Shown here: positions 14,102 to 32,205 of the stretch, in pieces
Numbering within the stretch: position 1 is the stretch's first letter
Layout of the letters: each line of letters opens with the position of its first letter
Source of the DNA: an uncultured delta proteobacterium
Lineage (GTDB): Bacteria > Desulfobacterota > Desulfobacteria > Desulfobacterales > UBA2156
NCBI GenBank assembly: GCA_963736855.1
Contig: CAVTQK010000021.1
Location: 480,001-544,000, forward strand
Reading direction: 5' to 3'
Length of the DNA stretch: 64,000 nt
Program-made: the position numbers and the translations under genes
The notes under the pieces: model-generated
The model's database searches: none
What the model saw: only the letters and a program-made list of their open reading frames with translations
Told to the model about the DNA's origin: nothing

Positions 14102-14353
14102 CTATTTTTGAACAATGGCGCCGATGATTAGAAAAATAACCCCGAGGCCCACAAAAAGGAGGTAAAGCGGTGTCGTAGTCAAAAAGGAAAAGTACGCGCT
14201 GCTTTCCAGGAAACCGGTATTCATGAAATCGGAGAGGTAAAAGCTTGCCTCGGCTCCTTCCTTTTCCATCAGCTTTCCTAGGGCTTGATATCCCCAGACC
14301 AGAAATGCAGCCACCAGGCTGATCAGGCCGATGATGATGGGTTTATTTGCCAT
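14102..14353 (-). CDS. small two-TM membrane protein, unknown function
   Basis: 83 aa with two hydrophobic segments; purine-rich RBS-like AGAGAAAGGA upstream. Confidence 0.65.
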   Translation of the reverse strand: MANKPIIIGLISLVAAFLVWGYQALGKLMEKEGAEASFYLSDFMNTGFLESSAYFSFLTTTPLYLLFVGLGVIFLIIGAIVQK

Positions 14354-14440
14354 CTGATTCCTTTCTCTAAAAAAATGGCCTATGCCCCAGTCGTAAATCT
14401 AAGCCGCAATGCTTTCCCCGTATTTTCCTCGACAGTGATC

Positions 14441-14986
14441 CTAAACGATACGCAAAGAGGTCAGCGGTACCATCCCCTGTTTCTTTTCCTTTAAAGTTGA
14501 ATTCTTCAGACCTTCGATCAGCGAAGCGAGAACGGCCTGCTGCTTTTCGTCATCGAATTTGAATCTTAAACCGACACCTTCCGATGTGATTCTGACGACT
14601 TCGGATAGAATCTTGAACGGGTAGACTTCGTGGGGAAAATTGATCCGCAAGAATAGCTCTTCCCCCACCTGAAAAGGCCTCCTGGAAATCATGAAAACAC
14701 CGCTGACACTGATGTCCTGAAGATAATCGGTGAAGGCCCGGCTGACATCTGCATAATCCACGGCAAGGGTATATCGTTTTCTTTCATTACTCCGCCCCTG
14801 ATCCTTTTCCCGGCGCGATGGATCCTTCTCGATCTCTTTGAGAAGTCCCAAGCGCTCTTCAGGCGTCATCTGCTGAATGAGTCTCATAAGGCGGCCTAAA
14901 ACGATATACTGATTTTTTTGAGCATTACCGTATTTCAAGATCCACCCCCTATGAAAAAGCCCGATAAAAAACCCCTCTTTTTTCAT
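14441..14986 (-). CDS. PilZ-domain (c-di-GMP receptor) protein; true start probably downstream of 14986
   Basis: RxxxR (RSNERKR) and D/NxSxxG (DISVSG) motifs, followed by a beta-barrel-like segment (VVRIT..GVGLRF). Confidence 0.82.
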   Translation of the reverse strand: MKKEGFFIGLFHRGWILKYGNAQKNQYIVLGRLMRLIQQMTPEERLGLLKEIEKDPSRREKDQGRSNERKRYTLAVDYADVSRAFTDYLQDISVSGVFMISRRPFQVGEELFLRINFPHEVYPFKILSEVVRITSEGVGLRFKFDDEKQQAVLASLIEGLKNSTLKEKKQGMVPLTSLRIV

Positions 14987-15403
14987 ATTTCAACAGATTG
15001 GAAAAGTCAATGACCATTTTTTGATCGTTCTGACAATCGATTATAAACCGATTAACAAGGTGAAATATCGGGATTTCGAGGTTCAAGCGTCAAACTTTGC
15101 TTTGAATCGAGTATCTGTTTGGTTCGCGAGGACAACGCCAAACCTCCTGACCGATTTGTTGAAAAAGGGATCTCCTCCTATCAGACTATGTAAACGGTGT
15201 AAAGCCTTGGAATTTTCTTTTTTTGTGTTTATATTATTGAGATTAAATTAATGGGGTATTCATGGGCGATATCGATAAGGCTTATCCGTTTCGATGTTAA
15301 CTGAGTTTCGGGCCGCTTTTGAATTACCTGAAAATCAACTGCCAAACTTTACACGGAACATGGGTTTTCCGAAAACAAGAGTTACCCGTTAAGGTAACAG
15401 TGG

Positions 15404-18400
15404 ATGCAAACTGATCAAAATTCCGAAAGGATAAAACCCCCCCGAAAGATCCCTCGTTGGATCCTTTGGATCGTATCGGGCCTTTTGATCGGTATCGTCC
15501 TTATCGGCGCGGTCATTTTCTTTATCATCCCCTATGTGGCATCCACTTCCCATTTTCGGGAATTGATCGAATCCCGCGCGTCCAGGATGCTGCATCGAAG
15601 CGTTTCTATTGAGTCGATCGACTTCGGATGGAAAAAAGGCCTTCGGGTGGAGTCGATTCAGATCTCAGACGATCCTAAGCTTCACGAGACACCGATGGGG
15701 TCTATCGGCCTTTTAAAGGTCATCGTCGATTTCCCGAAACTGGTTAAAAGCGGCCGGTTGGCATGCGATATCTTCCTTGATGCCGTAGCGGTTCATATCA
15801 TTCGGGGAAAAGATGGAAAAACCAACCTGCAGCAGTTTTTAGCCGGCTTGTCTGCTCCGAAAGAAAGCCGACCGGCCGCTGCGGATGAAAAAAAAGGGTC
15901 CTATGCCATTCCTGTGACCGACTTTGACGCGCTATTAATTATCCGTCATATGAATATCCTTTATGAAGATCGGATTCAAAACCAAACAGCCGGTCTATAC
16001 GACGCGTCCTTGGACATCCATGTTCCATCGCTTATTGCCCAACCTCTTTCCATGAAAGTATCCGCCGAAGTCCGATCCCAGGGAAAGCCTCTCTCCCCTT
16101 TGAATGCCTTTCTGAAAATCCAGGACCTTTTCGATGAATCCGCAAATATTCAGCCCGACCGGATGTCCATCGACATGGAACTTTCAGCCCCGGGGGTTCA
16201 GATGACCCTAAAAGGTAACTTATCTCAAAAAAATTTGGCCGGTACAGGATATGCGGATCTTGAAAAGGTTCAGCCCGTTCTTTTTTCCGTGTTGCCGGAA
16301 CAATTGCTTCCGACGGTGAAAACCGGCCGATTCGAGTTCACCGCGACAGCGACCCAGCTCGATGATTCCCGCGCCGCCTTTGACACGCGCATCCGGCTCA
16401 AAGGGATCGAAATCCAGGCATTCTCCGATAAAGAATCGCCGGCGGGTCCCCTTTCACTGGACCTGAGTCAAAAAGGCACCATCAACATTCCAAAGGGGGA
16501 CCTGATCATCGAAACAGGAGGACTTTCCTTGAATTCCAGCCGGATGGAATGGCATGGAGAAGTGAACGGTCTTTCAACCTCCAGTCCCGACATGCGATTC
16601 AACATGGGTCCGTCGAAATTTAATCTTTACGAATTGTTGACTGCGGCCGAATCTTTTTTGCAAACCTCTTTTCCTTTCAAGCTCCTGGACCCATCTTCAC
16701 CATTGCTTGAAATCCATGGAATGGAAATTTCAGGGCATCCCCTTCAGGGTCGGCTTTTTATCGATATCCGCGGGATATCCGGTTCGATTAGGCGGTTTCG
16801 GGTTCCGTTTCAGGAAGACACGGCCTTTGCCGATGTCGGCAAGTTGGCGATATCTCTTCCTCAGTTAAGAGGAAGCCTCGCAGACTTTGTCCCGGCTGAA
16901 ATCCTTGCTAATGGATCGCTGACCGTCGCGGATCTCAACCTACATGGACATAGCGGTTTGAAAATCGATTCTTTGACAATCCCCGCATTCCGACTGGAAA
17001 CCCGAGGGCTTCGAGTCGACAAGCGTGCCCCTTTTGGATTTACCCTCCCCTTCTCCTTTACCACCTCCCTTGAGGCGAATGGAATTCAGGGTCCGGATCT
17101 CGAACACGCTCACCTGAATTTGTTATCCTTCCAGATTCAAGGAAACCTCGGATCCAATCCTTTTGCAGAGGCTGCTCTGAAAGGGTTTCGACTGCATGTG
17201 CCTGACTTCAAATGGCGGCATGAAGCACTCGGAACGCTTCGTGGCAATGTCTTAATGGAGGCAGAGGCGCCTCATATCCGTATCCAAGGACTGAATCCCC
17301 TTAAAGGCGATGTCGAGCGGTTTCATTTGAGGCTTCTCGTCGATAAAGGAATTGAGGCAACGCTTAATGCCGATGTTCTCGATATGGGGCGCCAATATTT
17401 TAAAACCGATACAAAGGTTGCGATGGATCTGGGATTTCTGGATTCGATATTGCCGGCTTTTTTTGATGACCGGCATCGGTTTTCTGGCAAGGCCCAGGTA
17501 ACCTGCAACCTGTCCGGCCATATTCCGCCGTCTTTCACGTTGTCGTCACTGTCGTCATCGCCGATGGAATGGATTCTCGAACCCAAATCGTCCGTCATCG
17601 AATCAGCAGGGCTTTCCTTGAATTTTTCCCGTGTGGGCGGATCCTGGCCGATTAACGCAGGGACTGTGTTGGAGGTCAAAAGCATAACGACCCCAACACC
17701 TGTGGCATATGCGTTCGATGGGAAAAACGCTTCCGGAACCCTCAAAGGGGATATTCAAATCGAAGGAATCCGGTCCTCCGTGCTCCCCGTTCCGGACGCG
17801 TCACAGAAGCCTTCTCCAGTCTCCATTTACCTGGCCGTCACCGGGGACCACAACCGGCTCAGTTCGACTTCACTTTCAGCCTCGCTGGATATCCAACCCC
17901 TGGGCATCAAAGGGGAAACCTCCTTTTCCGTCGAGGGAATCGACGCTCTTCTCAAGTCATCCAAAGTCGGAAATCCCTCGGGGTGGTCCCAATTCTTAAG
18001 CGGCAAAGCCAGGATCACGGCGGATTTGCCCGAAACCGGAAAAATTTTTCTGGATCCAAAAACAATACTTCAGGGAGGATTTAAAGCAGGAGCTGAAATC
18101 GAATCAAACGCAGATCAAGGGATGCGCGTGAAGATGTGGGCAGACACAAAGAATTTTGATATCGAAAAAGAGAAAACTCTTTCCATCAAAAACCTCAACA
18201 CAGCCTTGTCTTTTGAAAAACGGTATCGGCCCATGCATCAGATGCATCCGGAAAAGGCGATGACGGATCGCCTCTCCGATTTGGTGATCCAGGATCGCAC
18301 TTTCCGGCAAACGGATTCGTTTGAACCCGATATGTTCGGCACGCCGGCTGGTGGATTACAGTCCCGGCTGAACCCAAAACCGTCAATCGATCTCGGGCCT

Positions 18401-19078
18401 GCGCGATTGTTCCTTTCACCCCACGTAGTCCCGATTCGCCACGCCGCATTGGACCTCAATTTCAACGACGGCCTCCCTCAGATTCGACGCTTGGAAGCCC
18501 ATCTTCTTGAAGGGGCGATCATGGGCTCGGCAATGGTATCCCGAGAAGACGATGATTTGAATTTCGGGGCACGCCTGCTTTTTTCCGACATCGACTTAAA
18601 AAAAATGCTCGAAAGAGAAAAACAAACCCCCGGGGAGGAGGACTCAACCATCGGGGGGCAACTGGAAATCGCGTTTCCTCTGGTATCTTCCCTGCGTCAA
18701 CTGATTGAAAATCTCCAGCTCAGTCTCCAGTTCAACCATATCGGTTCCCGCGCATTCGGACGAGTGCTCTATCTTTTGGATCCCTATGAAAGCAATGAGA
18801 CCATTGCCTCCCAGCGGAAACTCCTGCACAGCGGAGTGCCCCGCTGGATCGATGTCAACGTATCAAACGGGATCCTCTCCCTGGATGGGGAAGTCATCGT
18901 CAAAGGCGTTCCCATCAAGATCCCGCATCTGGAGCGATTGAACCTTGCCGCTGTTTCCGGTTTGGAGACCTATGAACCGTATCTTTCATCCTTGAATACA
19001 TGGGTTCCTATTCTTAAAATCGTATCGGATTCATCCTCGCCGTTCGGCTGGATGAAAAAAATTAAAACAAAGAGGTGA
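15404..19078 (+). CDS. AsmA-like / YdbH-type inner-membrane-anchored periplasmic bridge protein (1224 aa)
   Basis: Single N-terminal TM helix, an AsmA-type N-terminus (IESRASRMLHRSVSIESIDFGW...HIIRGKDGKTNLQQFL), then ~1,100 aa of alternating hydrophobic beta-strand pattern. Immediately upstream of a DUF1318 lipoprotein. Confidence 0.72.
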   Translation: MQTDQNSERIKPPRKIPRWILWIVSGLLIGIVLIGAVIFFIIPYVASTSHFRELIESRASRMLHRSVSIESIDFGWKKGLRVESIQISDDPKLHETPMGSIGLLKVIVDFPKLVKSGRLACDIFLDAVAVHIIRGKDGKTNLQQFLAGLSAPKESRPAAADEKKGSYAIPVTDFDALLIIRHMNILYEDRIQNQTAGLYDASLDIHVPSLIAQPLSMKVSAEVRSQGKPLSPLNAFLKIQDLFDESANIQPDRMSIDMELSAPGVQMTLKGNLSQKNLAGTGYADLEKVQPVLFSVLPEQLLPTVKTGRFEFTATATQLDDSRAAFDTRIRLKGIEIQAFSDKESPAGPLSLDLSQKGTINIPKGDLIIETGGLSLNSSRMEWHGEVNGLSTSSPDMRFNMGPSKFNLYELLTAAESFLQTSFPFKLLDPSSPLLEIHGMEISGHPLQGRLFIDIRGISGSIRRFRVPFQEDTAFADVGKLAISLPQLRGSLADFVPAEILANGSLTVADLNLHGHSGLKIDSLTIPAFRLETRGLRVDKRAPFGFTLPFSFTTSLEANGIQGPDLEHAHLNLLSFQIQGNLGSNPFAEAALKGFRLHVPDFKWRHEALGTLRGNVLMEAEAPHIRIQGLNPLKGDVERFHLRLLVDKGIEATLNADVLDMGRQYFKTDTKVAMDLGFLDSILPAFFDDRHRFSGKAQVTCNLSGHIPPSFTLSSLSSSPMEWILEPKSSVIESAGLSLNFSRVGGSWPINAGTVLEVKSITTPTPVAYAFDGKNASGTLKGDIQIEGIRSSVLPVPDASQKPSPVSIYLAVTGDHNRLSSTSLSASLDIQPLGIKGETSFSVEGIDALLKSSKVGNPSGWSQFLSGKARITADLPETGKIFLDPKTILQGGFKAGAEIESNADQGMRVKMWADTKNFDIEKEKTLSIKNLNTALSFEKRYRPMHQMHPEKAMTDRLSDLVIQDRTFRQTDSFEPDMFGTPAGGLQSRLNPKPSIDLGPARLFLSPHVVPIRHAALDLNFNDGLPQIRRLEAHLLEGAIMGSAMVSREDDDLNFGARLLFSDIDLKKMLEREKQTPGEEDSTIGGQLEIAFPLVSSLRQLIENLQLSLQFNHIGSRAFGRVLYLLDPYESNETIASQRKLLHSGVPRWIDVNVSNGILSLDGEVIVKGVPIKIPHLERLNLAAVSGLETYEPYLSSLNTWVPILKIVSDSSSPFGWMKKIKTKR

Positions 19079-19080
19079 GC

Positions 19081-19662
19081 ATGAAATCCTTTTGGATTAT
19101 CCCGGTGTTTCTTTTTGTCGGATGCACGCTGGCTCAGGTGAATGTGGAGGTTTTAAGCGAACGAACCGCACTGGAAAACCAGATCCTGGGCACCTACAAC
19201 GCTTTGGACAATGAAATGCTTCTGCTGGCTTCCGTGAGGGCCGTGGATGCCACCGGTGCTTTTCAGGATACGCCTCCGAAAAGCCGGGAACAGCAGGATG
19301 CGGTCACCGCCCTGCAGGTTTTGGCGTTTCATGCGGACGATCTTACGGCATTTAAAAAGCTGCAGTGGGTGGGTGAAAACAACCAGGGGCTCCTGAGCGC
19401 TTTTCCTATGCAAAAAAAACGTGTTCCGGAGGACCTGGGAGCCTTTGCCGAGCGGTATTCCCAGAAGGAACTTGACTCAGTGGTCTCTCAGATCAACACC
19501 GCCCGTGAAACGCTTATGCGCCGAGTTATCGACCTGAACGAGAATCTCACCGAAGCCGATTGGCCCAGCGTCCGTGCGATCTTCGGTAAGCTCAACGCGG
19601 ATAACGCCCTTCCGGGAGAAAAGATCCAGGACGAGAACGGAACATGGAGAATCAAATCATGA
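19081..19662 (+). CDS. lipoprotein with YnbE-like N-terminus and DUF1318 (YdbL-like) domain
   Basis: Lipobox FVGC after a short signal peptide; beta strand VNVEV + ERTALENQILG; DUF1318-like K..WVGENNQGLL...VVSQINTAR...PGEKIQDENGTW. RBS GAGGTG. Confidence 0.72.
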   Translation: MKSFWIIPVFLFVGCTLAQVNVEVLSERTALENQILGTYNALDNEMLLLASVRAVDATGAFQDTPPKSREQQDAVTALQVLAFHADDLTAFKKLQWVGENNQGLLSAFPMQKKRVPEDLGAFAERYSQKELDSVVSQINTARETLMRRVIDLNENLTEADWPSVRAIFGKLNADNALPGEKIQDENGTWRIKS

Positions 19663-22600
19663 ACTCGGTTAATGCCCTCCGCAAATATTGCTCTTGTCTC
19701 GGTGTCGCACTGGCTGTCCTTTTATGGAGTCGAGGGACCCTGGGGACACAAACCGAGCCTTTTTCGACCAATCAGCCCATACAGATCACTGCAGAGGCGG
19801 ATCCGGTGTTGTCATTTTCAGTATCTTCGGATGGAAAAAAGATTGCATTTGTTTCGAAAAAAAAGCGGTTTCCCGATCTATGGCTCCGAAGCATAGATCC
19901 GGCTGCCCACTTTTCCATGCGCCAGCTTACCGACACTCCGGCTTTGGAATCCGATCCGGCCTTCTCCGAAAACGGCCGCTACATCACTTTCGTTAGCACG
20001 CAAGATGACGCCAAAGGTGATATCTTTGTCATCGACTTAAATCAAAAAACCCCGGCACCGGTCCGGATCACGGGCAAGGAGACCGAAGACGGCGCACCGA
20101 GTTTCGGTCCGGGTGAAACTTTGTTTTTTCATCGCAAGGGCCCCGAGATGCGGGACTATGAACTGGTAGTTGTAAGCATCGGTGCATATGTCCGGGGAAC
20201 GAACGAAAAACAGAAGCCCGTCGTGCTTCCCACACAAGGAGACGCTGCTTTACCGTCCGTTTCTCCAGATGGTCTGGAGGTCGCTTTTGTCAGCACCCGG
20301 AACACCGATTCCTCGGATATTTTCGTCATGAACCTGAAGACCCGGGCGCTCCGGCAGTTGACCACCGGCCTCTTCAGAAACCTTTTCCCCCGATGGTCCT
20401 TGGACGGCCGTTACATCCTTTTTTCGCGATGGTCATGGAATACCAACGGTGACGAGACTGTCGACGAACGGGATCATGCCGTCCTGTTTCGCGTCCCTGC
20501 AAGCGGCGGAGATCCATATCCGCTGACTTCGGCACGCTTTTCATCGATCCGCCCTGCTCCGGCTGAAAACGGAATCTATTTTCTCTCGGATTCAAAGGGG
20601 ATCCCCAACTGCCTACGTATCCCATCGGATGGACAGATTCCCCGGATGGAAAATCCGGAAACACAGCTTGAATTGGCCCGCAACATGTCCCTGAAGCTTC
20701 CCCGTGATCCATATCTTTCGCTCCTGGCTTACCACAAAGTTCTCGAAACGTATTCCCATGTTCCGGCTATTGCAGTTCAAGCCCTCTATTCGATCGGGCT
20801 GACAAGCCTGGAAGAAAAGATGCCGATTCATGCCATACAGGCCTTCGAAAAGATACTGAGCAGATATCCTGACCAGGAGCCCGAGGCCTCTTTAGCGCGG
20901 ATTCAACAAGTTCTCTTAAAAGCTGAAACGGCACTTCAGAGATCCAAAAGCCCCCAAATCCGCATGCAGATCGTTGAAAATGCAAACCGGGAACTGGATC
21001 ATATAGCTGAGGGCAAGGCACTGGATATCCGCCTTTTTTCAGACATCGAAAGAGCCCGACTTCTGAGTCGCACCGAAAGCTCGAGCGCAAACTTGTTGCA
21101 GGCGATCCGCATGCTGGACATGGTCATCGCCGAACCTTCCGCTCAATCCGAACGGGTGGTGGAAGCCATGGTTCTCAAGGGAGATATTTACCGTAAAATC
21201 GGAAATTACGAAGCCGTCTATCCGGTATATCTCGCCGTCATCCAGCGATTTCCCGATGTTCCCGTATGGGCAGACGCCGCCCTGGAACGCATGCTCGATC
21301 TCATCCTCTCTCAAAAAGGGTCCACTCTGCCTGAGGACCGTATCCAACTGCTGAAATCCCTTTCCGATCAGCATCGAACTGATACGCAGAAGCTGGCTAT
21401 GGGCGCCCTCAACCGGGTCGGAGACATCCTTTATGCCGCCGGTGAATGGTCCAAGGCCAAGGCGGCCTATCGCCAGGTGATAGATCAATTCCCGGTTCGC
21501 ACCACCCAGACCGCGGCCGCACGGTTCGCGCTGGCTGAAATCCTGTATCAGGAACAACGGTTTCGAGAAGCACTGGATCTGTATGAAAACGAGATCCACC
21601 TGAGAGAAAAAGAAGATCGTATCCGAAAATTGGCCAGAGCAGGCTTCATCCAAAAATCGATCGACGCCGCCGAATATTTTTTCGATCTCGGGGAAATCGA
21701 CGCCGCCCGGAGTCTTTTTAAGGAGATCATCGATTTCGACGGAAGCTTTGTCGAGGCCCATCGGGGATATATCAAGTGCGCCGCCGCCCAGATGGACATG
21801 GATAAGGTTATTTTAACCTACCGAACCCAGACGATACAAGCCCCTGCGGATCCAATCGCAACATACGCTCTTGGCCTTGGCCTCTCGTATCGGGAGGACA
21901 AAAAAAGCCTCAAGGAAGCCCGAGGGCTCCTCGAGCGGGCGATTCTTCTCAACGGCCAGATCAGCCATTTCCACCGAACTCTGGGGTATGTCCTGGAAGT
22001 CCTCGAAACGGTGTATGGTGAAAAAGGGGGGCTGGAAGGTGCGCTGGAATCATACCAAAAGGCGTTTTTCCTGACCGATCCGGAGGGCGACCCGAACAGC
22101 CACGCCGAACTCAACCTCAATTTGGGAAATGTTTACTTCCTCCTGGGCCAATACGCCAAGGCGTTTCATCATTACGACAAGCGCCTGGCTTCGAAAAAAT
22201 CGATTCCCAGCCTCAAGGCCGCTATTTTATTTTACAAGAGACTGGGAACGGCTGCATTCCAGATTCGCAAAATGGAGGAGACCATCAACGCCTTTTCCGA
22301 GGCCGTCCGACGGATCGATTCCGGGATCGACACCCAAGACCCTTCGACCTATCTGAACAGAGACCACCGGTGCGTCATGGATCGGATCGTGAGTCCTGCC
22401 TTGCGCATCCGGTCCCTGGAAAAAGAGGCTTCAAGGATCGCCGAAGCCCAGGCTGACGCGAACCGTGCTCTCTCCGATATTCAGGCCAGGCGGCAGCAGC
22501 CGCCCAGTCCCGCCTGGAAAGAATACCGCGAAAAGATCCAGCAGCAAATTAAGCTCCAGGAAACGCTGAATCAGAAGGCCCTGTCCCTGGCCAGGACCTC

Positions 22601-25600
22601 TATGAAGTCCGGTCTGCACAGCCAGGCAGATTGGAATGGCTTCAAGGGCACCCTGTCCCTGATGCTTTCAAAAGCCAGAGAAGCTGTCTTGCTTCCGGAA
22701 CAACTCATCGAATTGAAGGTCGAGATGTTGGACAGGCTCGGTCTGGCCTATCAGGAAGCCGGCAGATACCCGGAATCCATCCAATCCTTTGAGCAGGCCT
22801 TTGCTTTGAATGAGAAGCTCGGTTTTAAGAAAAATCTTGCCCTAAACCTGAGATCCATCGCATTCAACCGATATCTTCTGGCGGAAAGACAATCCGGCGA
22901 GGCACGCATCCGGACCCTTCAACTGGCATCCAAAGAGTTTGCTCGTGTCATCGGACTGGTGGATGCCTACGGTGTTCCATCACCTGCCTCGGAATCCGCG
23001 GATGCCTTGATCCGCATCGATGTCCAAACGGCGCTGGATGAGCCTGGCGCAACCCAAAGCGGAAAGGGGTTTTCAAAGACCCAGGAAAAGCGATTGGCGG
23101 AAGCGTTCATGAGCAGAATCTCCATTGAACTGGGAGAAATTGAAACCGCCAGTGAGAGCATGAACAGCCAGACGGCCTCTTATGCAGAAGGGCAAGCGGT
23201 ATCCGATGCAGATGCTTACGGGGTGGCCCTCCTGTTCCATCGGGCCGGTCACCTGGCTGCCTCCCAAAAGGATTGGAAGAAAGCCTACGATAATTTCCTG
23301 CGTTCCGGGGAACTGACCCTGCGTGCCGACATTCCCCTGGGCTCCTATTATAACGCCGTCAATCTGTCTAAAGCGGTCACCCAGGTTCAACCTGATGATC
23401 CCGATAGACGTCGAATGGCCTCAGCCCTGGAAACCTTCGACGCCAAAACACTCAGTCTTCTAACCCGGAATTCTACCGCGGCAACCCCGAAGCTTTTGGC
23501 AGGGTATCACAACGCCATGGGCGTCTACCTGGTTTCGATCCCGGCAAGCCCGAAAAAAGACATCCGGGAAACCATTGAAAAATCCCGACGGTTCCAACGC
23601 GCCATGCTGCATTTTTCCAGGGGGATCCGGATACTGGAGGAACCTAACGTTAAAACCCTTAACCGGGAAGAAGCGTCGCTGCTTTCCACTCTACACCTGA
23701 ATCTGGGCCGAGCAGCCCTTGAACTCAAAGAAGATTCGGCGGCAGCCGACCATTTTCAAAAGGCCCTTAATCTGGCTGAAAGCTCCATCCTGCCTGATAT
23801 CCAATGGCGTACCCTGATCGCTCTCGGACGTCACGAAGAAGCACTCAAGGTCCTGGAATCGGTGACTGCCTTGCGGGCCGGTTGTACCAAAGGCGAAATC
23901 CTGGATGGATTTTTTAGCTCCGTAAGAACCCTCATTGAAAGGCAAGAAACGGAAAGCGCTTTGAACCTTTTGGAAAAGGCGGCGGAATTGGAGCGATACC
24001 ATCGACTGGCTCCGTTGATCCTTAGATTTTCCCATCATGAAAAGCGCTTTTTCATCGAGGCCCTTTCACGGCTGGATCGAATTGATGCATTGCAAGTACA
24101 CCTTTCAGGTGCCGATCCTTTCCGGAAAAAGGACTTGGAATCGGAATTGACCCTTGAAAAAACCCGACTGGCCGACCAGATGGGCGAAAACAATCAAAAC
24201 CTTCCGGATTTCATCCGCCTGATTCCAGATGATGAATCTCGAATATCGGCGATTCGTTTGGTGGGGCTTTCCGCAATTGCCGAATCGATGGCCGATGAGG
24301 CGGTCCGAAACCCAGCCGATGCGGATTTTCGTAAAAAATACACTGAAGCGGTGGACCGATATAAAGCGATCTTCAAAAAGACGCTCAGCCGCCGCTCACC
24401 GGATATGCCGTCCAATCCCCTGGTGCTGTTCGGCCCCGAATCGTATGAGGCCATCGATATTATGGAAACCCTACCGGAAGGTGGCCGGTTTGTCCGCATC
24501 TTCAAGACCTCCCGGGCCTCCGACCCCGTCATTTCATTCATCCTCAAGAAGGATCAGCTTTCAGGCAGCCTCCATGGATCTCTGGAAACTGCACTGAAAA
24601 CCGTGCAGTCGCCCGATCCATCCTCAACTTATCTTGCTTTCGATTACCCGGATGAACTCCCGGTAAACGACCCCATCCTTGAAAGGGGCTATAATCTCGT
24701 TTTAAGCGCGGCCCATTTCATGCGCTCTTTTCATCATAAAAAATTGTTTAAAAGAATCGTGGTCCGCATCCCTTCCCCTGCTTCTAGAAAGGAAGAGACC
24801 TCCCTATCCTCCCCTGATCTCTTACCGTCCCTTTCGGGGAAAGATCCCTCGGGGTTTCATGTCCTGGTGGTGGACACTCCGGTATTTTTGGCTCAGCAGG
24901 TCCCGACAAGGCCCGGGGCGTTTTCCACTCCGTTTGCCGCCGTGGATCTGAAAAACGGGGAACGTTTTCCCCTTTTGCACATATTGAATCGACTCGGCCA
25001 TGCTTCCATCGCACTCCTGGAAAAAGCATCGCCTGAGGATGCCTTTTGGATCGGGCATTTGTTCTCCATCTATGGATGTCCGACACTGGTCCTTCCTGCT
25101 CAATCAGGCTCCGATGATCGGTTTGCCGACGCGTTTCTTAAAGCCTTCCGCACCCATACCGCCGGCGAATCCCTGAAATTGGCCCGTTCGGAGGTTGTCG
25201 GCGCCGGGAAATGGATGCTCGTCGGTTTCCCCGGTATGACTCTGGAGGAATCCAAAGCTTTTGCCCGATCCCATTTCGAATCGTACATCACCCGCGCAAA
25301 ACGCGCCTTTGATCGCAAGCAATTCGGCGAAGCCTTGATCCTTTTTGAAAACGCCATCGATATCGCCTCTGAAACCGATGTGTTCCGATCTCATCTTTTA
25401 GACCTCTACCCTTATGCCCGCGAGAGCGCCTATTTGGCCGGGGATCGAAATAAGGCTCTGGATTTTTCCCAGCGCTTGGTCAAGATTCTGGAAACGGAGC
25501 AACCGGCCTCTAAAGCCCATGCCGAGGCCCTATTAAGGCTCGGGCTTGTGCAGGCCCATTTGGAAATGTACGCTCCGGCCACTGAAACGATGAACCAGGC

Positions 25601-28121
25601 CTTGAAAATCTATCAGGCCCTTCATTTATCTCCCCAACAGGCGGAAACGCTTACAGAAATGGCTTGGGTAGCCGAACAGACTACGGATTATGAGACAGCC
25701 CTGACTTATTTTGAATCCTCGGTTTCGCTGACAAAAGATTCGGATCCCCGGTGGCGTTTGGGTGACCGGTTCCACAGCATCGGCCGTATCTTTGATTTGC
25801 GTTTGAGTCAGTATGCCAAAGCCATTACCAACTATCAGAAGGCAGCCTCCCTCTATCGTCAAGGGGAGCAAAGTTCCGAATCCACGGCACGAATCGCGCA
25901 GACTCTATTGGATGTGGGTCGATGCTATCGGCTCATGGGAAATCTTTCCGAGGCCGAAAAGCACTACGAACAGGCCTTGAAATTGTTATCCTCTGAGCCG
26001 GCCCAGGATACGCTGCGGTCCAAGATCCTCATCGAGCAGGCTAACAATGCCTGGTATCAGGCCCGATATGAACCGGCTTTTCGCTTACAGCAAAAGGCTT
26101 GGGCTATCGCCCTAGAACAGGGTCTCTTGCCCATGCAGGTCATCGCCCTCAACACCTCCGGACCGTTGTGGTGGGCACTCGGGGACAACGAAAAGGCTTT
26201 AGCGGAACTGAATCAGGCCCTTGAGATCGCAAAACGCTTACCCCATCGGGAAGATGAGGTCGCTACCACCCTGAACAACATCGGGATGATCCTCCGGGAA
26301 ACCGGACGGTTCCCGGAAGCACTGGATGCTTTCGAAAAGGCGCTGTCCATCGATAAGCGTCTTAGATCCCGTTGGGCCATGGCATACGACTACCGGCATA
26401 TCGGGGTGACCCACCTGAAGATGGGCCTTCCTCAAAAAGCCATCCCCTTATTGACCACGGCTCTCAATGAAGCCCGTGCCATCGGAAACCGCATCCACGA
26501 GGCAAAAGCCCTCTTAGACCTGGCCGACGCCCATTTGGCCGCCAACAATCCGTCGGATGCCGGTCGTATGTATCAGGAATCGCTTGCCCTATCCGATTCC
26601 CTTGCCATCCAGGAGATTCAATGGCGCGCCCTGTACGGACTGGCACGCATCAAGGAAAAGGCACAACCGGATGAGGCCATACGGCTTCTGAAAGAGGCGG
26701 TAAAGATCATCGAATCCATCCGGTCCAACATCCGGATCAGCCGGCTCAAGGACGGGTTCTTGTCCAACAAGTTAATGGTTTACGAAATCCTCTGCCGACT
26801 CCTGGCCGACTCCGGTAATCCGGTGGAAGCCTTCGAGATGGCTGAGCGATCCCGTTCGAGAAACTTCATCGATCTTTTGGGAAGCCAGTCTTTCTCCCTG
26901 GATCCTGCCGTGGATCGACGCCTTTATGATCGATATCATGCACTCAAAGAACGGATCGAAACCATTAAACAACAGATAATCCAGGATACTGATGCCGAAG
27001 AACGTAAAAGGCAGGAGGCTCTCCTGAAAAAAGCGACATCCGACCTTGAAACAGTGATGATTGAGATTCAGGCATCCAACCCCAGACTTTCCTCGCTGGT
27101 CGCCGTCGAACCCCTTCGAGCGACGGAACTTCAGCAGATGATAGAACCGGGAGTCGCCCTTCTCTCCTACTATATATTGGAAAATGAGCTTTTCTGCTGG
27201 CGTATCCTTCCCCAGGAAATTCGCCTTTTTCGTCAAAAAATCAACCGAAAAGAACTGGAAGAAACCCTTCTGGACTTTCGGCGACGCATCCAAAATCTGG
27301 AGCCGTTCGAAAAGCCGTCCCATGAACTTTACGACATCCTGGTTAAACCTGTTCTTTCCGGCCTGGAGCATATCAAACATCTGGGTATTGTCCCCCATGG
27401 ACATCTTCATTATCTTTCCTTCGCCACCTTATCTGATGGAACGGATTTTCTCATCGACCACTTCCCCATCTTTTATCTTCCCTCTGCCTCCGTCCTGAAA
27501 TATACGAAGGAAAAGCGCATTTCGGGAAAAAACCTCGATGTCCTGGCTATCGGAAACCCGGATTTGGGGAACCTCAACCTGGATTTGCCCTTTTCGGAGC
27601 ATGAAGTCCATTCCATCCAGTGGAACTTCCCGAAAATCACGATCCTGACAAAGGAAAGGGCCACGGAGAAATGGGTTGTTGACAATATCGATCGCTTTGG
27701 AATAATCCATCTGGCATCACACGGCGAGTTTGATCCCGTCAATCCGCTTCTTTCCGCAATCAAACTGTCTAAGGAAGGGGAAAGTGATGGAAACCTGGAG
27801 GCTGCCGAAATCTTCGGACTGAAACTTTCGGCGGATCTCGTGGTCTTAAGCGCCTGCCAGACCGGACTCGGAAAGATCACGGCAGGCGACGATGTGATCG
27901 GGCTCAACCGGGCCTTTCTTTACGCAGGCACCCATGCCATCATCTCCAGCTTGTGGAGAGTCAGTGATATCTCAACGGCCATGCTGATCAAGGCATTCTA
28001 TCGTGAATATGTTGATAAAAACAAAGCAGAAAGCCTTCGCCTGGCTGCCTTGCACGTCAAGAACCGCTACCCCCATCCGGGATACTGGGGAGCCTTTACC
28101 CTGGTCGGAGATTACGAATAA
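19659..28121 (+). CDS. giant putatively exported PD40/TolB-propeller + TPR + CHAT (caspase-like) protease, ~2820 aa
   Basis: Signal-like N-terminus (LRKYCSCLGVALAVLLWSRGTLG); PD40 repeats (SSDGKKIAFVS, FSENGRYITFVS, SPDGLEVAFVS, WSLDGRYILFS); many TPRs (e.g. TTLNNIGMILRETGRFPEALDAFEKAL); CHAT catalytic IHLASHG and VLSACQTG, plus SLWRVSD and HPGYWGAF. ATGA overlap with the lipoprotein gene. Confidence 0.9.
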   Translation: MNSVNALRKYCSCLGVALAVLLWSRGTLGTQTEPFSTNQPIQITAEADPVLSFSVSSDGKKIAFVSKKKRFPDLWLRSIDPAAHFSMRQLTDTPALESDPAFSENGRYITFVSTQDDAKGDIFVIDLNQKTPAPVRITGKETEDGAPSFGPGETLFFHRKGPEMRDYELVVVSIGAYVRGTNEKQKPVVLPTQGDAALPSVSPDGLEVAFVSTRNTDSSDIFVMNLKTRALRQLTTGLFRNLFPRWSLDGRYILFSRWSWNTNGDETVDERDHAVLFRVPASGGDPYPLTSARFSSIRPAPAENGIYFLSDSKGIPNCLRIPSDGQIPRMENPETQLELARNMSLKLPRDPYLSLLAYHKVLETYSHVPAIAVQALYSIGLTSLEEKMPIHAIQAFEKILSRYPDQEPEASLARIQQVLLKAETALQRSKSPQIRMQIVENANRELDHIAEGKALDIRLFSDIERARLLSRTESSSANLLQAIRMLDMVIAEPSAQSERVVEAMVLKGDIYRKIGNYEAVYPVYLAVIQRFPDVPVWADAALERMLDLILSQKGSTLPEDRIQLLKSLSDQHRTDTQKLAMGALNRVGDILYAAGEWSKAKAAYRQVIDQFPVRTTQTAAARFALAEILYQEQRFREALDLYENEIHLREKEDRIRKLARAGFIQKSIDAAEYFFDLGEIDAARSLFKEIIDFDGSFVEAHRGYIKCAAAQMDMDKVILTYRTQTIQAPADPIATYALGLGLSYREDKKSLKEARGLLERAILLNGQISHFHRTLGYVLEVLETVYGEKGGLEGALESYQKAFFLTDPEGDPNSHAELNLNLGNVYFLLGQYAKAFHHYDKRLASKKSIPSLKAAILFYKRLGTAAFQIRKMEETINAFSEAVRRIDSGIDTQDPSTYLNRDHRCVMDRIVSPALRIRSLEKEASRIAEAQADANRALSDIQARRQQPPSPAWKEYREKIQQQIKLQETLNQKALSLARTSMKSGLHSQADWNGFKGTLSLMLSKAREAVLLPEQLIELKVEMLDRLGLAYQEAGRYPESIQSFEQAFALNEKLGFKKNLALNLRSIAFNRYLLAERQSGEARIRTLQLASKEFARVIGLVDAYGVPSPASESADALIRIDVQTALDEPGATQSGKGFSKTQEKRLAEAFMSRISIELGEIETASESMNSQTASYAEGQAVSDADAYGVALLFHRAGHLAASQKDWKKAYDNFLRSGELTLRADIPLGSYYNAVNLSKAVTQVQPDDPDRRRMASALETFDAKTLSLLTRNSTAATPKLLAGYHNAMGVYLVSIPASPKKDIRETIEKSRRFQRAMLHFSRGIRILEEPNVKTLNREEASLLSTLHLNLGRAALELKEDSAAADHFQKALNLAESSILPDIQWRTLIALGRHEEALKVLESVTALRAGCTKGEILDGFFSSVRTLIERQETESALNLLEKAAELERYHRLAPLILRFSHHEKRFFIEALSRLDRIDALQVHLSGADPFRKKDLESELTLEKTRLADQMGENNQNLPDFIRLIPDDESRISAIRLVGLSAIAESMADEAVRNPADADFRKKYTEAVDRYKAIFKKTLSRRSPDMPSNPLVLFGPESYEAIDIMETLPEGGRFVRIFKTSRASDPVISFILKKDQLSGSLHGSLETALKTVQSPDPSSTYLAFDYPDELPVNDPILERGYNLVLSAAHFMRSFHHKKLFKRIVVRIPSPASRKEETSLSSPDLLPSLSGKDPSGFHVLVVDTPVFLAQQVPTRPGAFSTPFAAVDLKNGERFPLLHILNRLGHASIALLEKASPEDAFWIGHLFSIYGCPTLVLPAQSGSDDRFADAFLKAFRTHTAGESLKLARSEVVGAGKWMLVGFPGMTLEESKAFARSHFESYITRAKRAFDRKQFGEALILFENAIDIASETDVFRSHLLDLYPYARESAYLAGDRNKALDFSQRLVKILETEQPASKAHAEALLRLGLVQAHLEMYAPATETMNQALKIYQALHLSPQQAETLTEMAWVAEQTTDYETALTYFESSVSLTKDSDPRWRLGDRFHSIGRIFDLRLSQYAKAITNYQKAASLYRQGEQSSESTARIAQTLLDVGRCYRLMGNLSEAEKHYEQALKLLSSEPAQDTLRSKILIEQANNAWYQARYEPAFRLQQKAWAIALEQGLLPMQVIALNTSGPLWWALGDNEKALAELNQALEIAKRLPHREDEVATTLNNIGMILRETGRFPEALDAFEKALSIDKRLRSRWAMAYDYRHIGVTHLKMGLPQKAIPLLTTALNEARAIGNRIHEAKALLDLADAHLAANNPSDAGRMYQESLALSDSLAIQEIQWRALYGLARIKEKAQPDEAIRLLKEAVKIIESIRSNIRISRLKDGFLSNKLMVYEILCRLLADSGNPVEAFEMAERSRSRNFIDLLGSQSFSLDPAVDRRLYDRYHALKERIETIKQQIIQDTDAEERKRQEALLKKATSDLETVMIEIQASNPRLSSLVAVEPLRATELQQMIEPGVALLSYYILENELFCWRILPQEIRLFRQKINRKELEETLLDFRRRIQNLEPFEKPSHELYDILVKPVLSGLEHIKHLGIVPHGHLHYLSFATLSDGTDFLIDHFPIFYLPSASVLKYTKEKRISGKNLDVLAIGNPDLGNLNLDLPFSEHEVHSIQWNFPKITILTKERATEKWVVDNIDRFGIIHLASHGEFDPVNPLLSAIKLSKEGESDGNLEAAEIFGLKLSADLVVLSACQTGLGKITAGDDVIGLNRAFLYAGTHAIISSLWRVSDISTAMLIKAFYREYVDKNKAESLRLAALHVKNRYPHPGYWGAFTLVGDYE

Positions 28122-28126
28122 CATTT

Positions 28127-28279
28127 GATGAAATCGTAAAAACTCAAGATTAGGATGGCAAAGTAAAAAGCTTCAGATGCAAGGCGCGCAAATCCTGAGG
28201 AATGAGGCGTACATATGGGTACGCCGCAATGACGAAGGATGCAGTGCAACGCAGCAGATGGACTTTTTACGAAGCCATC
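28127..28279 (+). mobile_element. 153-bp MITE-like repeat, subfamily A, copy 2
   Basis: Ends GATGAAATCGTAAAAACT / ACTTTTTACGAAGCCATC; perfect 6-bp flanking duplication ACATTT (28121-28126 and 28280-28285). Confidence 0.9.
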
Positions 28280-28297
28280 ACATTTAAAGGAACGGAT

Positions 28298-28825
28298 ATG
28301 TTGTTACGACGGGTCATCATCACGATTTTTCTTTCAATGATACTGGCCGGAGCTCACCTCAGCCACTCGGCCGAACGGGTCTGGGTCTCTTCTTTCGACG
28401 CCAAACTCAAGGCCGACAAAACCGCATCATCTCAAACCCTCGCCGTCCTGACGGTGGGAGCCGAACTGACCGTAAACAGCGAGGATGAGCGATGGTATCT
28501 TGTCACCGCTCAAGACGGGAAAAAGGGGTGGATCTATCGAGGCAAAGTCTCTTCAGAGCCTCCACAGCCTTCCGGCGAAAAAACCGAAGGCGATTCGGTG
28601 GGAAAGCTCCTGACAGGGCTTACCGGCAGCCGGATCGGATCCGGTGAAGCCGATACCTCGAGAAGCATGCGCATGCTCTCTGTGGAAAAAAAGAAAAAAA
28701 AGGACGGGTCTCAACCCGATCAGAATTACGAGGAAGCCCTTGAATCGGTTCTGTCGCGCCGGATTCCAGACGTTCGTGTCGATCAATTCCTGGAAGCCGC
28801 CAAAATCGGTGAATATGCGCCATAA
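28298..28825 (+). CDS. exported SH3b-domain protein
   Basis: ATG 28298 with RBS AAAGGA; signal peptide ending HLSHSA; SH3b pattern LAVLTVGAELTV...WYLV...GKKGWIY. Confidence 0.82.
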   Translation: MLLRRVIITIFLSMILAGAHLSHSAERVWVSSFDAKLKADKTASSQTLAVLTVGAELTVNSEDERWYLVTAQDGKKGWIYRGKVSSEPPQPSGEKTEGDSVGKLLTGLTGSRIGSGEADTSRSMRMLSVEKKKKKDGSQPDQNYEEALESVLSRRIPDVRVDQFLEAAKIGEYAP

Positions 28826-29787
28826 TGGAAGGATTTTTCATGTTTAAATCAGGCATCACCCAGACGGGTTTTAAAACAATCTCCAGAAAACGGCGCACCT
28901 TAGTCAAAATATTGGGAATGGCGCCGCTGATAGTGGCCCAACCGGCCATGGCCATTGACTTTTTAAAACTTCTGGAGCCCAAGAAGGATTCAACCGGCAA
29001 GGAAGGTCCTACAGACCTTGAAAAGGCGCTTCAGATCCTTCAGGGGGCCACCGACATTATCGGAAGCAGCGTGGAATTGGACTACGAATCCGAAATGATC
29101 ATCGGGAAAAGCGTTGCCCTGGAAGGATTCAAACGATACGGGCTTCCCGTGAAAGAAGATTCCCTGCAGAACTATGTCAATCTGGTCGGACAGGCTGTCG
29201 CCCGCAATTTCAAACCCCAGGATAGAACCTATTTCTTTGTCGCCGTTCAAAGCGAAGTGTTCAACGCCTTCTCCTGTCCCGGAGGAATCATCTTCATCAC
29301 CTCCACCCTGATCCGAAATCTTCGGGATGAATCCCAGTTGGCGGGAGTCCTGGCCCATGAGGTGGCCCATGTGAATCTCAAACACGCCCTTCAATCCATC
29401 CGCAGGGCCAAGTTTTTCGAAGGAGTCGGAAAAATCACCGTGGCCACAACTAAAGTGGACAAAAAGGAACAGTACCAGAACATGATTAACGACCTTCAGA
29501 CAGTCCTGTTTGACAAGGGGCTCGATCAGAACATGGAGTACGAAGCGGACCGATACGGAATGGAGATCGCCTATCGAACCGGGTATCAGCCGGCCGGCTT
29601 TATCGGGGTCCTGGAGATGTTGAAACAAAACGAAGCCGGCGCAGTTAAAAAGGGTTCCTGGTTTTCCACCCACCCGCCTCTTTCCCAGCGGATCCAACGA
29701 TGTCAGGTAAAGTTTCAGGATTATCCGGATGCCGGTTCCATGGCAACGGTGGCCCATCGTTTCCTGGAGTATCGGAATCGATTTTAA
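28825..29787 (+). CDS. M48-family zinc metalloprotease (BepA/LoiP-like) with Tat-like signal
   Basis: KRRTLVK...AQPAMA N-terminus; NAFSCPGG, HEVAH, EYEAD..G, STHP. TAATG overlap with the SH3 gene. Confidence 0.9.
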   Translation: MEGFFMFKSGITQTGFKTISRKRRTLVKILGMAPLIVAQPAMAIDFLKLLEPKKDSTGKEGPTDLEKALQILQGATDIIGSSVELDYESEMIIGKSVALEGFKRYGLPVKEDSLQNYVNLVGQAVARNFKPQDRTYFFVAVQSEVFNAFSCPGGIIFITSTLIRNLRDESQLAGVLAHEVAHVNLKHALQSIRRAKFFEGVGKITVATTKVDKKEQYQNMINDLQTVLFDKGLDQNMEYEADRYGMEIAYRTGYQPAGFIGVLEMLKQNEAGAVKKGSWFSTHPPLSQRIQRCQVKFQDYPDAGSMATVAHRFLEYRNRF

Positions 29788-29807: not shown

Positions 29808-30932
29808 ATGAACGCTGATACCCGAAAGATGCTTTATCGCACCCGGATCCGGCGCCTTCAAAAGGCGATGAAAAAAGAAAACATCGATACCCTGATGGTC
29901 TCAATCCAGGAAAACCGGCGGTATATCAGCGGATTCACCGGCGAGGACACCCAGTTTGACGAATCGGCCGGCGCTCTTCTTATCACCGAGAATCGCCTGG
30001 TTCTTGCCACCGATTCCCGGTACGAAACCCAGGCCCGATCCGAAGCCCCCCTTTTCGAAGTCTTTTGTTACCGGGAGGGATTGCCAAAATCACTCCCGGA
30101 GATCCTGAAATCCTTCAAAACCGAAAGACTCGGATTTGAAAGCGTGAGGCTGTCTGTCCAGGAACTGCACAAGATCGAGGATCAGCTGAAAAAGGAAAAA
30201 ATCCGAGCGGTATTGGTCCCTGTCGCGGACCTGGTGGAAAAACAACGTGAAATCAAGTCCGCTGCAGAAATTGCGGCGATCCAAAGGGCTCTCAGGCTTG
30301 CAGAAGAGGCATTTCAGCGCACCCTTCCGATTCTCAAACCGGGAATCACTGAAAAGGAGGCGGCTTGGGGTCTGGAAAAAGAGATGCGGGAAGCCGGAGC
30401 CGAAGGCGTGTCGTTTCCCGTCATCGTAGCCTTCGGGGAAAACAGCGCCCTTCCCCATGCCGTGCCGGGAGGCCGGAGCCTCAAACCCGGCGAACCCATT
30501 CTTTTCGACTGGGGAGCCCGCCTTGACGGCTATTGCTCCGATATCTCCAGAAGCTTTTGCATCGGAAAACCGAATGCGTTTTTTAAAAAGGTGTATCAGG
30601 CGGCACGCGATGCCCAGGAAAAAGCCGTCGAGGCGATCCGACCCGGCGCAAATACCAAGGACATCGATCACATCGCCCGATCCCTCATCAACCGGCGAAA
30701 ATTCAAGGGTTGTTTCGGACACGGCCTCGGGCACGGAGTCGGCCTTGCCATCCATGAAGCCCCGAGACTCGGCCCCATCAAGGACGATACGCTGTTGCCG
30801 GGTATGGTTTTTACCGTGGAACCGGGGATCTACATCCCTGAATGGGGCGGTATCCGCCTGGAAAACATGGTCGTCGTTAAAAAGGACCATGCCCAAGTGC
30901 TCAATCGGCTGCCCACCGATATTGAATTGTAA
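29808..30932 (+). CDS. Xaa-Pro aminopeptidase / M24 family peptidase
   Basis: Creatinase-like N-domain (YISGFTG, TDSRY), [41 protein letters not shown]. Confidence 0.92.
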
Positions 30933-31565: not shown

Positions 31566-32195
31566 ATGCCGAACCGACATACCGTGAGCCAGGGCGAATG
31601 CATCTCGTCCATCGCCGCTCGTTACGGCTTCTTCCCGGCGACGATCTGGGATAATACGGGTAATTCCCGGCTCAAGGCCGAGAGGGGGGACCCTAACGTG
31701 CTCTACGAGGGTGATGTGGTCGTTATTCCCGATAGGCGGGTTCGCTCGGAACCTTCAGCTACTGAGCAGCGGCACCGGTTTCGCCGCAAAGGCGTCCCGG
31801 AGAGATTGCTGTTTCAAATCCTCGATGAGGAGCAACCCAGGGCCAACCAACCCTACGTCCTGGATGTCGACGGGCGATTGACCCAGGGGACCACGGATGC
31901 CGAGGGGGCGGTCGTGGAATTCATCCCACCCGACGCCCGGAAAGCTCGCCTGCTGATCGGCGAGGAACGACAGGAGTACGTGCTCGACCTTGGATGCCTC
32001 GATCCCATTGACCAGTTATCCGGGGTTCAGGCTCGCCTGAATAACCTTGGCTACGACTGTGGCGCTGTCGATGGCGCCCTGGGACCCAGAACCACGGCGG
32101 CGTTGAGGCGCTTCCAACAAGACCACTCCCTGCCGGAATCCGGAACCGCTGATCAACAGACCCAACAAAAGCTCCGCGAGGTATACGGGCGCTAA
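31566..32195 (+). CDS. LysM + linker + peptidoglycan-binding (PG_binding_1) protein
   Basis: HTVSQGECISSIAARYG...DPNVLYEGDVVVIP (LysM); RANQPYVL...GTTDAEG; VQARLNNLGY..GAVDGALGPRTTAALRRFQ (PG-binding). No signal peptide. Confidence 0.88.
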   Translation: MPNRHTVSQGECISSIAARYGFFPATIWDNTGNSRLKAERGDPNVLYEGDVVVIPDRRVRSEPSATEQRHRFRRKGVPERLLFQILDEEQPRANQPYVLDVDGRLTQGTTDAEGAVVEFIPPDARKARLLIGEERQEYVLDLGCLDPIDQLSGVQARLNNLGYDCGAVDGALGPRTTAALRRFQQDHSLPESGTADQQTQQKLREVYGR

Positions 32196-32205
32196 CTCTC
32201 CTGCG

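Follow-up and report, generated by a model that had tools for sequence, protein, structure and literature searches.

We analysed a 64,000-nucleotide stretch of DNA from an uncultured delta proteobacterium of the Desulfobacterales (contig CAVTQK010000021.1, positions 480,001 to 544,000; hereafter the window), and within it an operon of five co-oriented genes for a predicted AsmA-like bridge protein, a YdbL-type lipoprotein, a giant propeller-TPR-CHAT protein, an SH3b protein and an M48 protease. The operon is real and conserved, and it is undescribed within the scope of the literature searched. The five + strand open reading frames (ORFs) were confirmed at the coordinates given in a first-pass annotation of the same DNA. 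Residue numbers of the giant are counted from the first ATG of its ORF, at 19644, while the annotated gene is taken from 19659. The features are:

15404..19078, + strand: predicted AsmA-like (repeating beta-groove) protein, 1224 aa (Pfam, hydropathy, ESM, AF2, Foldseek)
19081..19662, + strand: YdbL-type lipoprotein, 193 aa (DUF1318 over cut-off, lipobox Cys15)
19659..28121, + strand: giant exported propeller-TPR-CHAT protein, 2820 aa (Pfam domains, alignments)
19761..20633, + strand: TolB-like PD40 propeller of the giant, ~residues 40-330 (PD40 E 2.3e-24)
23796..25238, + strand: putative degenerate internal CHAT module of the giant, ~residues 1385-1865 (hhalign, hidden Markov model (HMM), ESM)
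26751..28118, + strand: active-type CHAT (caspase-like) module of the giant (Pfam CHAT E 2e-62)
~28126..28280, no strand: miniature inverted-repeat transposable element (MITE), 155 bp (inverted repeats at its termini, target duplication of 4-5 nt)
28298..28825, + strand: exported SH3b protein, 175 aa (SH3_3 over cut-off)
28840..29787, + strand: M48 zinc protease with a twin-arginine-type signal (Peptidase_M48 E 3.8e-30)

Read from the DNA, the AsmA-like gene and the lipoprotein gene are separated by 2 bp (TGA-gc-ATG), the lipoprotein and giant genes overlap in an ATGA (19659-19662), and a TAATG is found at 28823-28827 between the SH3 and M48 genes. The M48 ORF is open from 28825, and the ATG at 28840 is preceded by GGAAGGA, with the same 14-nt gap before it in the closest relative, L027 (L numbers denote fetched loci, G000 the window's own genome and other G numbers further sampled genomes). 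Translation of M48 probably starts at 28840 rather than 28825, so the TAATG is probably incidental; all junctions given in the first-pass annotation can be read in the DNA, this last one being likely without meaning. As that annotation had also claimed, the only intergenic gap is the MITE, excision of which leaves TAA-cattt-AAAGGA-acggat-ATG, and in the relative L030 the site is empty (MITE-free), with stop, ribosome site and start spaced in the same way. Of 107 BLAST matches to the element in the genome, 50 are near full length at no less than 90% identity, and a 4-5 nt duplication flanks 36 of these 50. The MITE is a passenger and lies outside the system. A 207-aa SH3 ORF starting at 28202 was rejected, as its N-terminus is MITE sequence, and a promoter scan performed at chance level (10 vs 10.8).

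To place the operon, 185,579 genomes (GTDB) were scanned, yielding 339 stretches with the lipoprotein family, of which the best 80 were analysed; since kin are not independent, we report counts only and no statistical test. The asmA gene adjoins the lipoprotein gene in 70 of the 75 loci with upstream room, the giant comes after the lipoprotein in 67 of the 77 with downstream room, and SH3 follows the giant in 32 of the 45 in which the giant's end is visible, all five genes lying within the fetched 20 kb in 27 of the best 80 loci. Synteny elsewhere, which had been set beforehand as a test on which the proposal could fall, was hence recovered. The other two such tests, on a signal peptide of the giant and on a beta bridge fold of the 1224-aa protein, did not overturn the proposal either, as set out below. 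The closest named relatives among the loci listed are Desulfobacterales genomes, one five-gene locus (L038) is labelled NC10, and some lipoprotein relatives are named Nitrospinota. A divergent query gave 32 metagenome loci, 17 of which have the giant after the lipoprotein.

Where the operon is split, the parts are usually retained: the giant is kept elsewhere in all five tested genomes and SH3 in four of five. Desulfonema magnum (L033), a cultured carrier with a closed genome, has asmA-lipoprotein, the giant and SH3-M48 at three distant sites of its single-contig chromosome. In 300 sampled genomes of the phylum, a strong lipoprotein match was present in seven and the giant in nine, with all seven contained in those nine; the two giant-positive genomes in which no such match was seen have completeness values of 79% and 86%. 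In five genomes of the same sample, operon-type SH3 could be detected. Within the order itself the spread is patchy (lipoprotein in 14 of 150 genomes), and a close-relative search of viral contigs with a single query, the L016 lipoprotein, gave no relative. In one lineage, at L014 (6677-7702), L015 (6337-7386) and L181-L185, a 341-aa gene without a Pfam match replaces the giant after the lipoprotein, the giant being found elsewhere.

By hydropathy, the first gene product has a single N-terminal membrane anchor (residues 23-41), and its N-terminus matches DUF748 (E 1.7e-12) and weakly YhdP and AsmA, all under the Pfam cut-offs, while its ESM features are closest to AsmA clusters (0.97). A PDB sequence search with the bridge profile returned no match at E 1. 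The AlphaFold2 (AF2) model of residues 41-1224, built with 57 sequences, is almost wholly made of beta strands, at a predicted local distance difference test score of 81.9. Among the Foldseek matches, LPD-3 ranked first (E 1.5e-5) and the N-terminal fragment of Vps13 fifth (probability 1.0, E 5.8e-4), ApoB100 and teneurin coming in between. VIA-align likewise recovered LPD-3 (Z 9.9, root-mean-square deviation (rmsd) 13.7, 251 aligned), and the absence of TamB and YhdP structures from its listed matches excludes nothing. An N-terminal anchor with an AsmA/Chorein-N-like start and a long run of beta-strand repeats both fit the AsmA superfamily. We read this as a repeating beta-groove protein of the AsmA-like superfamily, with a putative lipid groove, congruent with the beta bridge proposed in the first-pass annotation. 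G000 also encodes TamB beside an Omp85 protein, apart from the operon; therefore, the operon bridge would be an extra one. A different DUF1318 lipoprotein subfamily is encoded beside an AsmA-like gene of 675-698 aa at L018 (3883-6575) and L019 (5535-8319), with no adjacent giant.

The lipoprotein consists of the lipobox cysteine (Cys15), an amphipathic strand, a helix and then a YdbL/DUF1318 domain, which scores over the Pfam cut-off and is present in 24 of 24 lipoprotein members. The cysteine is kept in 55 of 56 aligned rows, residues 18, 20, 22 and 24 are hydrophobic in alternation with polar ones, and a conserved helix follows. By the E. coli +2 rule (Thr, not Asp) we presume an outer-membrane location, although the rule may not hold in this phylum. 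In Foldseek, the lipoprotein model matched E. coli YdbL (28oj) with probability 1.0, a template modelling (TM) score of 0.83 by target length and E 1.4e-3; no Pfam YnbE-type match was found. In E. coli, strand I30-I38 of YnbE extends the YdbH groove (PMC11126948) and the C-terminal helix of YnbE binds YdbL (bioRxiv 10.64898/2026.03.16.712125). Because it combines a strand-helix pattern as in YnbE with a YdbL domain, the lipoprotein looks like YnbE and YdbL in one chain, the YnbE part being assigned by pattern.

The giant is laid out as a signal, a TolB-like propeller, TPRs, a putatively dead CHAT module, further TPRs and an active CHAT module, of which Pfam detects PD40, many TPRs and the C-terminal CHAT. 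The propeller matches TIGR02800 at E 4e-22, with 78.7 bits against a cut-off of 343, and the likeness to TolB, as judged from sequence, is one of the propeller domain only, short of the TolB cut-off and outside a tol-pal context. The predicted catalytic dyad is His2693 (27720-27722) and Cys2738 (27855-27857), both kept in 53 of 53 aligned C-termini, and nowhere in the protein is conservation higher than at this C-terminal CHAT end. The Csx29 model NF041237 is matched at E 1.2e-14 (54 bits against a cut-off of 300), and the nearest solved CHAT domains are those of type III-E CHAT proteins. The giant fits the CHAT family, with a His-Cys dyad behind TPRs, and proteolysis is predicted.

Export of the giant is suggested by its family. 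An N-terminal hydrophobic peak above 1.7 precedes the propeller in 36 of 44 full-length giants, the window's counted among the 44; eight lack such a peak, the window's included, whose signal peptide is weak and which has no 19-residue segment above hydropathy 1.6. Marginal internal peaks (1.71-1.87) occur at scattered positions in nine of the 44, and no internal membrane segment is conserved across giants. We read the N-termini as signal peptides; a crude pattern, with some false matches among its hits, finds a lipobox in 14 of 67. Since the window's own signal peptide is weak, export of this copy rests on its relatives; the first-pass claim of export or membrane signals on all five products is therefore upheld for the giant as a family but shaky for the window's own protein.

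Residues ~1385-1865 of the giant, which had escaped the first-pass annotation, probably constitute a degenerate, catalytically dead copy of the CHAT module. The lead-in of this second module aligns to that of the active one (hhalign probability 90, E 1.4e-6), and in the divergent giants of G023 and G064 the internal region matches the active-module HMM at E 7e-20, with the His-Gly and Ser-Ala-Cys positions replaced in the G064 alignment. The ESM features of the internal region in the window are closest to CHAT clusters (0.94). The caspase part of the dead module alone aligned weakly (hhalign probability 3.6, E 0.012; seven control segments 0.04-0.65). Elsewhere in the window's own genome, a 902-aa TPR-CHAT protein with a signal-like N-terminus, a 324-aa unknown exported protein and a CHASE2 cyclase are encoded in a row (L239:2312-8165, G000:C13); exported CHAT proteins thus also pair with CHASE2 receptors. 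A third TPR-CHAT gene of this genome is spread over several ORFs (G000:C21:672680-676778).

A link between bridge and protease is suggested by a gene fusion. Three loci from metagenomes (L204, L206 and L207) encode the giant in two overlapping genes, the first for a propeller-TPR lipoprotein of 1276-1315 aa, the second for a protein of 1596-1601 aa that begins with a lipobox-strand-helix segment and continues through TPR, dead CHAT, TPR and active CHAT; both halves are predicted lipoproteins. The fusion attaches within residues 1250-1450 of the giant. A search with the fused N-terminal region, in which the 8000 best candidates were scored, recovered the protein of L204 along with six others (43-56% identity). 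With an HMM of lipoprotein residues 15-52, all nine fusion N-termini (E 1.6e-8 to 0.053) scored above all 49 control N-termini from unsplit giants and propeller halves (best control E 0.16). Besides the fusion, the three loci retain a normal lipoprotein and an AsmA-like gene. With the strand-helix fused to it, the protease is most simply read as acting at the docking place of that strand, on the bridge's outer end, and the bridge-protease link of the first-pass annotation gains support from these nine proteins. Complex predictions combining the bridge C-terminus, the lipoprotein and the fused N-terminus of L204 gave 0.00, 0.37 and 0.01 in separate runs (mark 0.32), a different chain having been scored, and are not used as evidence.

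The last two genes form a portable pair, as far as sequence tells, a property not recognized in the first-pass annotation. In an alignment of 25, the SH3 tail has the consensus D-T-S-R-S-I-R-G-L with an invariant Arg125, followed by a C-terminal G-x-I-G-E-Y. The HEXXH motif of the M48 protein is HEVAH (29356-29370), RR-x-[FLI]-[LIMV] is found in 15 of 23 unfused relatives, the nearest solved structure is 3c37 with BepA next, and the BepA model NF052400 is matched with 79 bits against a cut-off of 570, the protein ending after the M48 domain. SH3 and M48 are fused in several Desulfovibrionales-labelled and related loci. Weaker full-length SH3 homologues adjoin M48 in eight other sampled genomes, in five of which a CHASE2 adenylate cyclase (Pfam) adjoins the pair; a FadL-like barrel accompanies some of them. 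When 33 M48s were placed in a tree, a branch (support 90/93, not starred) set the 22 rows of operon type, whether linked, scattered or fused, apart from the CHASE2-linked type. The SH3 Arg motif as a CHAT cut site was rejected, because it is conserved in CHASE2 cassettes where the giant is missing.

Tblastn of plasmids with M48 gave distant M48s only, and when the SH3 alignment was run as a profile against 50% clusters, multi-SH3 proteins crowded the results, which carry no gene context. A second SH3b-M48 pair of the window's own genome lies behind a CHASE2 adenylate cyclase and converges on tamB and an Omp85 gene (L240:2155-12695, G000:C23). A FadL/OmpP1-like barrel gene flanks SH3-M48 in L159, L160, L161, L164, L166 and L211, with the CHASE2 cyclase confirmed by Pfam at L159, L160, L161 and L166. 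G041 has a fused SH3-M48 in the operon (L012:3223-4455) together with a separate, unfused operon-type pair (L167:6430-7837), and in the L079 fusion HESAQ replaces HEXXH.

Compared with described systems, the closest parallel to the first two genes is YdbH-YnbE-YdbL of E. coli, which has the same gene order of an anchored beta-groove protein followed by a strand-helix lipoprotein and YdbL (DUF1318) (PMC11126948; bioRxiv 10.64898/2026.03.16.712125). In contrast, the YnbE-like and YdbL parts here appear to share one polypeptide, the bridge is 1224 aa with no detectable sequence homology to YdbH (879 aa), and three protease-related genes accompany it, with the strand also fused to the protease in some lineages. 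The giant resembles DdvA of Myxococcus xanthus, an extracytoplasmic TPR-CHAT with a His-Cys dyad and a proposed signal switch (PMC11506125). The first-pass annotation, which held CHAT proteases to be best known as cytoplasmic effectors, had overlooked this periplasmic precedent. DdvA is, however, a 991-aa single-pass anti-sigma factor (PMC11506125), whereas the giant has a signal peptide, propeller and putatively dead CHAT, without a cytoplasmic domain, adjacent sigma factor or defence island; instead of a cytoplasmic zinc anti-sigma domain and membrane helix, the propeller directly follows the signal peptide. Csx29/Craspase (type III-E CRISPR) and separase share the CHAT fold and dyad behind TPRs, but these are cytoplasmic and gated by Cas7-11/RNA or securin, while the giant family has signal peptides, and no Cas gene was found in the operon or the scanned flanking ORFs. 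CHASE2 cyclase-SH3b-M48 cassettes, on which a literature search found no paper, contain a homologous SH3b with an Arg/Lys-Gly-Leu/Phe tail beside M48, but their partner in the membrane is a CHASE2 adenylate cyclase, frequently accompanied by a FadL-like barrel, and their M48s lie apart in the tree. The M48 domain with HEXXH is shared with BepA/LoiP-type proteases, here without a TPR tail, and the beta-taco fold with GspN and TamB, here in an operon that has neither a type II secretion gene nor an Omp85 gene.

Aggregated, the co-inheritance, the bridge-type fold, the intact dyad, the dead CHAT module and two gene fusions are the basis on which we propose, tentatively and at somewhat less than an even chance, an accessory trans-envelope (periplasmic) machine in which a beta-groove bridge carries a gated protease docked at its outer end. 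By analogy with YdbH-YnbE-YdbL of E. coli, the AsmA-like protein would have its anchor in the inner membrane, and its final strand would be extended by the amphipathic strand of the lipoprotein, whose own YdbL domain would hold the helix after the strand. Judging from the fusion, the giant may act at the bridge-lipoprotein junction, tethered by a strand copy of its own in certain lineages and non-covalently here. Signal-dependent activation is summarised for DdvA, Craspase and separase (PMC11506125), and as in other TPR-CHAT proteases the giant could be inactive at rest and switched on when its propeller-TPR arm is engaged by a protein ligand or by damage to the envelope; the dead CHAT module might serve as scaffold or allosteric partner. 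We would guess that CHAT cuts a member of the module (bridge, lipoprotein or SH3-M48) and so switches bridge assembly or flux, and, equally as a guess, that it is M48, and not CHAT, for which the SH3 tail and its invariant Arg serve as partner or substrate. The fuller version is rather unlikely, though worth stating: a separase-like protease with a dead twin, plugged by beta-strand augmentation into the growing end of a bridge-like lipid-transfer protein, where a caspase-type cut would switch lipid or lipoprotein flow between the membranes and SH3-M48 would provide a second proteolytic step.

Several observations weigh against such a machine. The Foldseek TM-scores of the bridge are low (0.09-0.13 by query length), VIA-align ranks beta-barrels above LPD-3 at rmsd 7-25, a match of common arrangement, and hhalign of the bridge to E. 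coli YdbH gave a probability below 2, in what is a weak test with a single-sequence template. A similar single-sequence comparison of the lipoprotein to E. coli YnbE aligned only the signal peptide, at probability 6. As for the fusion, the three weakest matches to the HMM are marginal (E 0.011-0.053 against 0.16 for the next control), a single lineage or origin may account for all nine proteins, and the fused peptide could be a mere borrowed export signal and lipid anchor for the split half. Further, the lipoprotein-giant junction is split in 10 of 77 loci, G023 (100% complete, with the other three genes) has no SH3 or M48 match, and in G064 only the CHASE2-linked type of SH3-M48 was found.

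The main competing explanation is a role in envelope defence or conflict, with the propeller-TPR arm sensing a periplasmic phage, predator or competitor protein, CHAT firing, and the bridge or SH3-M48, as effector, remodelling or sacrificing the envelope. Phage defence is controlled by DdvA, the single periplasmic TPR-CHAT so far described (PMC11506125), both the closest solved CHAT domains and the Csx29 model (E 1.2e-14) point to type III-E, and the spread is patchy (lipoprotein in 14/150 genomes of the order, giant in 9/300 of the phylum). We nonetheless regard it as unlikely, as the upstream neighbours are ordinary: in a set of 130 upstream ORFs taken from 49 loci, selected on length and including some wrong frames, PADLOC matched seven at 1e-8, namely four QueC, a phospholipase D, a staphylococcal nuclease and a weak kinase/regulator match, all explained by housekeeping families. 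The searches made found one copy per genome, the parts are retained after scattering round the chromosome, and no membrane segment, anti-sigma domain or CRISPR gene was found that could relay a signal inward.

Alternatively, the bridge may be a dedicated GspN-like route that carries the lipid-anchored giant or its halves to the outer membrane or surface, with M48 in quality control. GspN, an AsmA-like beta-taco protein, is required for surface transport of lipoproteins (PMC12802150), and both halves of the split giant are predicted lipoproteins, as are, by the crude pattern, 14 of 67 giants. This is improbable to us: 53 of the 67, the window's included, have no lipobox, no secretin or Omp85 gene is seen in the operon, and the YdbL-type partner indicates a YdbH-type bridge. 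Finally, an ordinary YdbH-type lipid bridge with its lipoprotein could be co-located with unrelated periplasmic proteases that share nothing but regulation. The SH3-M48 pair is indeed portable, standing beside CHASE2 cyclases in other genomes and in G000, the operon splits fall at module borders, and L018 and L019 have a DUF1318 lipoprotein beside an AsmA-like gene with no adjacent giant. Such independence is, however, hard to reconcile with a strand-helix peptide fused to the protease in nine proteins, with the genome-wide co-occurrence of the lipoprotein subfamily and the giant, and with operon-type M48s that separate from CHASE2-linked ones in the tree (90/93, not starred), and we deem it quite improbable.

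The first-pass annotation knew of no description of this combination, and none was found by us in the open literature either, subscription journals and supplements being outside that search, in which a table naming the combination could be missed. In the available parts of the YdbH/YdbL works there is no mention of Desulfo- taxa (PMC11126948; bioRxiv 10.64898/2026.03.16.712125) and, in the latter, none of CHAT; a term search of the accessible text of PMC8195603 gave no CHAT or M48. All parts are of known families; as an assembly, they match none of the known systems tested, a view that rests on genomic linkage. The operon joins the question of how AsmA-like bridges are regulated to that of what the many exported bacterial CHAT proteins cut, and it offers defined parts to approach both: a catalytic Cys, a dead twin module, a docking strand fused to the protease and an invariant Arg in SH3.

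As for the surroundings, an Xaa-Pro peptidase gene downstream (29809-30932) was rejected as an operon member, being of a cytoplasmic family and not following M48 or the giant in the flanks listed. A PilZ gene is divergent from the operon (14102-15403); close relatives (L027, L028, L034) have an EamA gene between PilZ and asmA, of which the window has no intact ORF. Further downstream lie a LysM/peptidoglycan-binding protein gene and then a 407-aa ORF without a Pfam match (31566-33429), and, 5 kb from the operon, a DISARM DrmD-like SNF2 helicase (35027-37944), the ORF of which is split across frames near 36081-36109 and apparently broken.

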